From Naegleria gruberi (taxonomy: Eukaryota), in the NCBI GenBank assembly GCA_000004985.1, contig GG738858.1: DNA of 64,000 bases; one strand, 5' to 3'. The position numbers were made by a program, and so were the translations under genes. This document shows positions 55,421-57,266 of the stretch, in pieces (the first letter of the stretch is position 1; the number at the start of each line of letters is the position of its first letter). The notes beneath the pieces were generated by a model. The model had not been told where the DNA came from. It saw only the letters and a program-made list of their open reading frames with translations, and did no database searches.

Positions 55421-57266
55421 ATGGACAAACACACAACACGAACACAACTTTCACAAAAAGAAGAAGAAACAAATAATTATAAATTTCCGAATGACATTAT
55501 TTATGAAATTATGTCCTTCCTTGATGATTTTAAATTTATTGTCATGAATTGTGCATTAGTGTCCAAACAGTGGTTCAATGTTATTTTATCAACATGTAAT
55601 CATCTTAATTTAAATTGTAAACGTGGTGTTGAAATGGGTGGCCAGTTTTTACAGAATATTGCAATTCTTGATGTTTGTGCCACGAATGATACTTGCAAAA
55701 AATTAATCTCGATGAAATCATTAACTGAACTAATAATTAAATGTGATGATGAAGGATCAGCTAAATTCATAAGCGAATTGAAACAATTAACGAGGCTTAC
55801 TATTGATGCCAGTCATATTCGTGATGAGGGAGTTAGATATATTAGTGAATTGAAACAATTGGCCTACCTTAGTGTTCATAGCAATGATATTTCTGATGAT
55901 GGAGTTAAATATCTAAGAGAATTGAAACAATTGACCACTCTTATTATTTTTAGCAATCGTGTTGGTAGTGAAGGATGTAAATGTATTAGTGAATTGAAAC
56001 AATTGACCTCTCTTTGTATTGATGATAATCATATTAATGATGAAGGAGCAAAGTATTTAAGTGAATTAGCACAATTAACATATCTTGATATTTCAAGCAA
56101 TGGGCTTGGTAATGAAGGAACTAAATACATTAGCACATTGAATCAATTGGAAAAACTTAATATTTCCCAAAATTATATTGGTGATGAAGGACTCGAATAT
56201 TTTGGTAAATTGTCACAATTGACAAGTCTTGAACTTTCATAGCAATGATATTGCTGATGATGGAGTTAAATATCTAAGAGAATTGAAACAATTGACCACT
56301 CTTATTATTTTTAGCAATCGTGTTGGTAGTGAAGGATGTAAATGTATTAGTGAATTGAAACAATTGACCTCTCTTTGTATTGATGATAATCATATTAATG
56401 ATGAAGGAGCAAAGTATTTAAGTGAATTAGCACAATTAACATATCTTGATATTTCAAGCAATGGGCTTGGTAATGAAGGAACTAAATACATTAGCACATT
56501 GAATCAATTGGAAAAACTTAATATTTCCCAAAATTATATTGGTGATGAAGGACTCGAATATTTTGGTAAATTGTCACAATTGACAAGTCTTGAACTTTCT
56601 AACAATAAGATTGGTACTGAAGGAGCTAAATATTTAAGTGAATTGAAACAATTAACCCAACTTGATATTGAATATAATAAGATTGGTGATAAGGGGGCAA
56701 TGTATTTTGGAGAATTGAAACAATTGGTCAATCTAATAATTAATAACAATAGGATTGGTAATGATGGAGTTAAATATATTGGTGAATTAAAACAATTAAT
56801 CTATCTTGATATTTCTGAGAATCGCATTGGCAATGAAGGAATTAAATATATTGGTGAATTGAAACAATTAACCGATGTTAATATTTCTGAGAATCGCATT
56901 GGTAATGAAGGAGCTAAATATATTGGTCAATTATCACAATTGACAAGTCTTTATTTATCTAACAATAATATTGGTAATGAAGGAGCTAAATATATAAGTG
57001 AATTGAAGGAATTGATCTATCTTTATATGAATAACAATAAGATTCGTAATGAGGGAGCTAAATACATAAGTGAAATGAAACAAGTAACCCAACTTGATAT
57101 TGGCAACAATTATATTGGCGAAGAAGGAATAAAATACATAAGTGAAATGAAACAATTAATACATCTTGAAAAATACCAATATAATGAAGAAATGTACAAT
57201 GAAAATGAAGAGGAGTATAATGAAAATGAAGAAGAATACACTGACAATGAGGAGGAGGAGTACTAA
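55421..57266 (+). pseudogene. F-box-like / RNI-type LRR protein, paralogue B. The reading frame is broken by a 361-bp tandem duplication: it is truncated by TAG at 56240 and resumes in another frame. Either a recently disrupted gene or an assembly artefact
   Basis: The N-terminus MDKHTT..FPNDIIYEIMSFLDDFKFIVMNCALVSKQWFNV is about 85% identical to paralogue A. The track start at 55385 is GTG; the first ATG is at 55421. ORF 55385-56242 and ORF 56229-57266 encode the same 120-aa block twice, in frames that differ by +1. Confidence 0.5.
55877..56598 (+). repeat. near-perfect direct tandem duplication, 2 x 361 bp (copy 1 about 55877-56237, copy 2 about 56238-56598), covering five 24-aa LRR units
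   Basis: Two identical stretches begin catagcaatgatatt[t/g]ctgatgatggagttaaatatctaagag at 55877 and 56238. Only one difference was seen, T55892 versus G56253. 361 is not a multiple of 3. Confidence 0.8.

Follow-up and report, generated by a model that had tools for sequence, protein, structure and literature searches.

A 361-bp tandem duplication out of register with the repeat unit interrupts an F-box/LRR gene in the Naegleria gruberi genome assembly

Does a gene that reads as broken in the Naegleria gruberi assembly record a real and very recent mutation, or does the break originate in the assembly of a repeat? The locus that raises this question lies in a 64-kb window, the whole stretch of DNA analysed here, which is gene-dense, has a GC content of about 33% and contains no Ns or gaps. 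The first-pass annotation described it as an F-box/LRR gene carrying two near-identical 361-bp copies head to tail, with one T/G difference between them. Since 361 is 360 + 1, the second copy was said to be read in the +1 frame, the first frame to end at a TAG at position 56240, and removal of one copy to restore a continuous protein. All of this held when each element was examined separately, with the qualification that the F-box part of the gene identity is marginal. The coordinates of the features are given in Table 1.

Table 1. Features of the duplicated gene and of its paralogue in the window, with the evidence for each.
Feature	Position	Strand	Evidence or remark
Paralogue, 705-aa ORF with 17 LRR units	32078..34195	+	~78% aa identity over aligned residues
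ORF1, 273 aa: F-box, seven full LRR units, then the first 8 residues of the eighth	55421..56242	+	Translation, Pfam, AlphaFold2
F-box-like motif, aa 22-60	55484..55600	+	Pfam, AlphaFold2, Foldseek
LRR array of 72-nt (24-aa) units: 20 unit-lengths + 1 nt as assembled, 15 without one copy	55712..57152	+	Tandem Repeats Finder, unit table, Pfam
Duplication copy 1 (361 nt)	55875..56235	+	Tandem Repeats Finder, base-by-base comparison
Duplication copy 2 (361 nt)	56236..56596	+	Differs from copy 1 only at 56253
Junction microhomology TTC, recurring at 55875-55877 and 56597-56599	56236..56238	+	Period-361 identity, flanks, unit register
Premature TAG made in the ATG frame by the junction	56240..56242	+	Sequence, translation
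Remainder of the gene, +1 frame, 342 open codons	56238..57266	+	Translation, Pfam

The duplication stands out sharply from the repeat array in which it is embedded. Tandem Repeats Finder reported an array of period 361 at 55875-56657 (2.2 copies, 96% matches, no indels) and an underlying array of period 72 (19.2 copies, 66% matches). Base-by-base comparison revealed identity at period 361 throughout 55875-56238 with one mismatch; at periods 359, 360, 362 and 363 identity stayed at a background of 25-41%, period 360 itself reaching only 41%. The copies agree at 360 of 361 positions, and the single mismatch is a T at 55892 against a G at 56253, so placed that each copy, read in its own frame, has a different residue: Ser (TCT) in the former and Ala (GCT) in the latter. 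In an identity matrix of the 72-nt units, pairs elsewhere in the array were at a median of 67% and a maximum of 88%, whereas the four whole duplicated units were 100% identical between the copies; for this reason the duplication is far beyond chance, and the original observation is confirmed. Each copy had been described as covering five complete LRR units. Its length is indeed five unit-lengths plus 1 nt, but the block starts at nt 20 of a unit and therefore comprises four whole units and two partial ones, with one hybrid unit arising at the junction.

Because 361 = 5 x 72 + 1, translation from the ATG at 55421 exits the LRR frame at the junction and runs into the premature stop; this displacement by one base fully accounts for the frameshift. 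As assembled, no continuous ORF combines the F-box with the full LRR array, the ATG frame ending at the TAG. The remainder of the gene can be read directly in the +1 frame, through the hybrid junction unit, 12 whole LRR units and an acidic NEEEY tail to a TAA at 57264-57266. Deletion of one copy yields an uninterrupted protein of 494 aa made up of the F-box, fifteen 24-aa LRRs and the acidic tail, which contains the reading ...LTSLELSNNKIGTEG... (also given as ...QLTSLELSNNKIGTEG...).

The assignment to the F-box/LRR class is supported by several comparisons, with the F-box component marginal. Pfam LRR_6 matched both ORF1 (E=1.2e-20) and the downstream part (E=2.2e-53). F-box PF00646 scored 22.2 bits against ORF1 and 24.1 bits against the N-terminal 108 aa alone, each time above a cut-off of 20.5, and F-box-like PF12937 fell just under its own (23.9 vs 24.3). 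An F-box-like match at E<0.01 was obtained for 4 of 8 family N-termini, and the best PDB match for a profile built from these eight sequences, itself weak (E=0.19), was the F-box protein GID2. AlphaFold2 modelled ORF1 with a mean pLDDT of 80.4, rising to about 90-98 in the LRR region, and predicted N-terminal helices at aa 24-31, 34-46 and 49-58 with low pLDDT. Foldseek returned more than 600 LRR matches at E<=0.001, and FBXL2 in the SKP1 complex (6o60_C, TMq 0.69) and KDM2A-SKP1 were also matched. The locus is a member of a lineage-specific N. gruberi family combining an F-box with LRRs, and by analogy with the FBXL family its members are presumed to be substrate receptors of SCF ubiquitin ligases.

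The closest database relatives of the restored 494-aa protein are N. gruberi "predicted proteins" of 38-61% identity, including NAEGRDRAFT_58930. No match in the protein database exceeded 61% identity, and the locus was represented there by neither a gene model nor an independent copy nor an ORF derived from transcripts. In a metagenome scan the relatives of ORF1 amounted to five loci of 28-35% identity, none of them an orthologue, and literature searches returned nothing on this F-box/LRR family or on the locus.

A much closer relative is located within the window itself, on the same strand and 23 kb upstream of the duplicated gene. This paralogue has the N-terminus, the LRR unit and the acidic NEEEY tail in common with the target, and nucleotide homology between the two genes extends from 12 nt upstream of the ATG into the tail. 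Compared with the restored gene it shows two indels of exactly 24 aa each. Because the paralogue differs only by whole 24-aa units, changes in unit number within this gene pair have kept the frame, and such changes are those that persist. The view that LRR arrays evolve by unit gain, put forward in the first-pass annotation, needs qualifying: the junction found here is not of the in-register type that homology produces in multiples of 72 nt, but an out-of-register one at a microhomology, and for that very reason it breaks the frame. For deciding which base is ancestral at the T/G site, the paralogue is too diverged in that unit (HSNDISDDG vs PANGIWCYT).

The synonymous distance between target and paralogue is about 0.2, and their dN/dS ratio is 0.62 for the genes as a whole; within the LRRs it is 0.77, and in the 121 codons that make up the later duplicated block it reaches 1.4. 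Such high values suggest diversifying or relaxed (weak) selection on the LRR surface in a family that evolves fast. They would therefore mean either weak constraint on the gene before the event or diversifying selection, and by the time of the duplication the gene was perhaps no longer needed.

Three further observations concern this family. The paralogue, like the target, has no near-identical protein in the database and seems to be without a protein model. In its NEEEY tail the acidic frame is lost near 33985-33989, and the acidic repeat goes on in another frame up to a stop at 34129-34131, a second frame anomaly within a repeat. Outside the window, near-identical blocks of 24-aa LRR units recur (…QLTSLDISENNIGVEGAKYISEMK…) in P0002, an annotated N. 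gruberi protein composed of a kinase, DUF4116 and LRRs; recent in-frame block duplication has therefore taken place elsewhere in the family too.

Neighbouring ORFs carry Adaptin_N, P-type ATPase, CLC channel, METTL16-type methyltransferase and DUF4116 domains according to Pfam, and a tRNA scan detected no tRNA genes in the window. The METTL16-like ORF at 57780-58955 is 100% identical to the NCBI entry "predicted protein, partial [Naegleria gruberi]", a match that identifies the window as N. gruberi DNA. The gene to which it belongs contains a 70-nt GT..AG intron at 57667-57736 (+; GTACGT...TTAAAG) that is non-coding and AT-rich and is confirmed by the partial NCBI model P0076, which reads FFAQ-Y-VDSEG across it. 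On the minus strand, a 1739-aa ORF (19479-24698) with many ankyrin repeats weakly matches the F-box-like profile at aa 529-562 (E=6e-4, under the Pfam cut-off), and a 557-aa ORF (51963-53636) is formed by repeats of DUF4116 (E=1.8e-55), the domain that is fused to a kinase and LRRs in P0002. At 48447-51892 (+), P-type cation ATPase domains are distributed over the consecutive ORFs 49543-50748, 50768-51175 and 51254-51892, which suggests short introns or frame interruptions.

How the duplication arose can be approached through the anatomy of its junction. The 29-mer at the junction as assembled is GTCTTGAACTTTCATAGCAATGATATTGC. The native contexts are preserved on both sides with no added bases, as GAACTTTC to the left and TTCATAGC to the right; the left and right native contexts are also given as CCTTAGTGTTCATAGCAATGATATTTC and CTTGAACTTTCTAACAATAAG. 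The TTC shared by the two sides is offset by 1 nt from the register of the 72-nt unit, and identity between the copies runs these 3 nt beyond the 361-nt unit. Much longer homology was available: exact in-register tracts of 14-26 nt abound in the array, spaced by multiples of 72 nt, and one of them, an 18-mer, has an offset of 360. Recombination through these tracts would give a period of 72n, which argues against unequal crossing-over (NAHR) between LRR units; the observed period of 361 is not a multiple of 72, and only 3 nt are shared at the junction. The direct copies, the shared TTC, the otherwise different flanks and the disuse of the longer in-register tracts are instead features of a microhomology-type junction. 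From this anatomy we infer replication slippage, template switching or end-joining, a microhomology of 3 nt having a chance expectation of about 0.1 and so being not significant alone.

The events at the locus may accordingly be pictured as follows. A replication template switch, or end-joining, at the 3-nt TTC and 1 nt out of register with the repeat would have created the 361-bp tandem duplication. Being out of register, the duplication would have taken translation out of the LRR frame at the junction, with the TAG met two codons on, and a truncated 273-aa protein or a null allele would have been the result. The 342 downstream codons would then still be open only because the duplication is so young. 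A very young event is indicated because one substitution in 361 nt contrasts with the synonymous distance of ~0.2 to the paralogue, and the persistence of a 342-codon open +1 frame in DNA of 29% GC fits a very recent break.

The same junction also bears on the length of the duplicate. If the real duplicate were 360 bp and in frame, and the extra T in CTTTC a base-call error, the gene would be intact with 20 LRRs. With a single T fewer at 56234-56236, where the assembly has TTT, a perfectly in-register hybrid 24-aa unit does arise within a continuous 614-aa ORF, and the downstream frame is open throughout; the junction would then join GAA CTT to CAT AGC within the sequence GAACTTCATAGC and encode the hybrid unit QLTSLELHSNDIADDG.... 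We nevertheless consider this version improbable. It demands an in-register 2-nt junction together with an error exactly there and is thus less parsimonious than a single clean junction, which with its native contexts GAACTTTC and TTCATAGC already explains the sequence. Moreover, identity at period 361 is uniform over the block, so an extra base could be located only at the junction itself.

A duplication of 361 bp could still owe its existence to the assembly, and the first-pass annotation had left recent duplication and assembly artefact side by side. The only N. gruberi genome that we found in the literature is that of NEG-M, a Sanger assembly of 1,977 scaffolds (PMC9928731 Table 1), and the strain is reported to be heterozygous (PMC9928731). 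An artefact would imply one genomic copy, the second having been introduced either by the assembler or through a chimeric clone or read, perhaps with two alleles that differ at the T/G site stacked on each other. The draft state of this assembly and the heterozygosity of the strain are in keeping with such an origin, as are the near-perfect identity of the copies, the single T/G difference, which could be an allelic SNP, and the missing gene model in the protein database searched. The downstream frame, intact for 342 codons, is equally expected of an artefact, and the second frame anomaly, in the repeat tail of the paralogue, could hint at occasional consensus errors in repeats.

The junction itself speaks against this origin, which we regard as unlikely. 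At least one read must underlie a novel junction. Extended near-identity is required for a false overlap, and the array offers it only in register, at multiples of 72 nt; because in-register tracts would serve such overlaps and yield a period of 360 nt, a false-overlap misassembly is argued against by the observed junction, which shares only 3 nt and is out of register. Sanger reads of ~700 nt can span the junction plus unique flank, and the two copies together, at 722 nt, roughly equal one such read in length. Stacked alleles normally flank gaps, and no N occurs in the 64 kb; this, together with a junction overlap of only 3 nt, is unlike a typical false duplication. In addition, one base tells the copies apart. 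The evidence of the junction is thus on the side of a real event, or at any rate of a junction truly present in reads, and a real, very recent 361-bp duplication in the NEG-M genome is in our view the probable explanation.

With a real duplication as the preferred reading, the locus as assembled should behave as a null allele or else yield a protein cut short at 273 aa, in which the F-box and seven LRRs remain. Independent expression of ORF2, the +1-frame remainder, is unlikely because its first in-frame ATG does not occur before about 56700. The earlier description of the duplication as gene-disrupting may be too strong for a product in which these parts are preserved. Among the annotated family members that were retrieved, lengths range over 285-357 aa, and the 273-aa product is only slightly shorter; because of this similarity in size, a truncated yet functional receptor is possible. 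Judged from the sequence, the duplication is most likely a very young, ordinary mutation that inactivates or truncates the gene.

A different outcome would follow if the break were real but bypassed, either by +1 ribosomal frameshifting at UCA-UAG-C, where the U of the stop codon would be skipped, or by an intron of 3n+1 nt, so that a functional expanded LRR protein would be made. Skipping of base 56240 (site 56237-56243) would indeed produce a 614-aa protein in which the junction unit, QLTSLELSSNDIADDGVKYLRELK, is a perfect 24-aa LRR. In its layout, a Ser codon and then a stop that begins with U, the site bears a loose resemblance to the antizyme frameshift site UCC-UGA-U, and 140 mechanical GT..AG combinations restore the frame. 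However, skipping any one nucleotide close to the junction would bring the frame back; this is a geometric outcome of 361 = 360 + 1 and not evidence of recoding. Around the site lies an unremarkable copy of coding LRR DNA that includes no dedicated stimulator, and UCA-UAG-C is, to our knowledge, not among the described +1 shift motifs. The two-frame layout follows directly from the duplication, and a single-frame ORF is seen both in the paralogue and in the family members that were retrieved. We therefore consider a bypass highly improbable. The same very low likelihood attaches to its product, a functional 614-aa protein with 20 LRRs, made by +1 decoding or some other bypass, that would represent a newborn five-unit expansion of the recognition surface and not a pseudogene. 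As for rescue by splicing, none of the 140 GT..AG pairs is independently supported or similar to the verified local intron at 57667-57736, and the 361-nt repeat lacks an AGGT through which one copy could be spliced out exactly.

If the duplication is real, a multi-unit block duplication would have been caught here before decay, as a snapshot of mutation in a repeat array. Microhomology events would then, besides in-register recombination, feed the variation of LRR arrays; most such events would be frame-breaking, and the in-frame variants would be those seen between paralogues. The analysis also brought to light two sizeable F-box/LRR genes in the N. gruberi reference whose protein models were looked for and not found, perhaps because such very regular 72-nt arrays resemble tandem repeats. 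LRR arrays are already well known to undergo tandem block duplication, and microhomology-mediated tandem duplications are as familiar as young pseudogenes in expanded families. Specific to this locus are a pair of N. gruberi F-box/LRR genes without a model and a duplication so young that its junction can be read cleanly, that junction showing an out-of-register, non-homologous origin. The value of the case lies in annotation and in textbook illustration, and it opens no major question beyond those.

Comparison with known systems places these features in context. In FBXL-type receptors such as FBXL2, Skp2 and KDM2A/FBXL11, an N-terminal F-box-like three-helix motif is likewise followed by an LRR solenoid. 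In contrast to these proteins, the F-box of the N. gruberi gene is marginal (22-24 bits vs the cut-off of 20.5), its ORF is broken in the assembly, and binding to Skp1 and assembly into an SCF complex are putative, predicted from the F-box motif. Its LRRs are also of another kind: very regular 24-aa repeats of the LRR_6 type with the motif QLTxLxIxxNxIGxEGxKYIxELK, whereas FBXL-type LRRs are roughly 26 aa long and contain cysteine. Microhomology-mediated tandem duplications are likewise head-to-tail and spacer-free, with a short microhomology of 1-5 nt (3 nt here), no inserted bases and no long homology; for the present duplication the mechanism is proposed from junction anatomy alone, and 3 nt are within chance (~0.1). 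Expansion by unequal crossing-over, as in plant NLR and RLP genes, also produces a tandem block of several LRR units. The N. gruberi duplication differs from it in having a period of 361 against a unit of 72, breakpoints that avoid the long in-register tracts and a product that is out of frame. Within N. gruberi, the LRR/F-box-like paralogues have a common N-terminal motif (FxDDIxYEILSF...NCALVSKQWFNVI) and a common 24-aa unit, and those that are annotated are 38-61% identical to the target. The paralogue in the window differs by in-frame indels of whole units; the target carries instead a frame-breaking duplicate of five units plus 1 nt.
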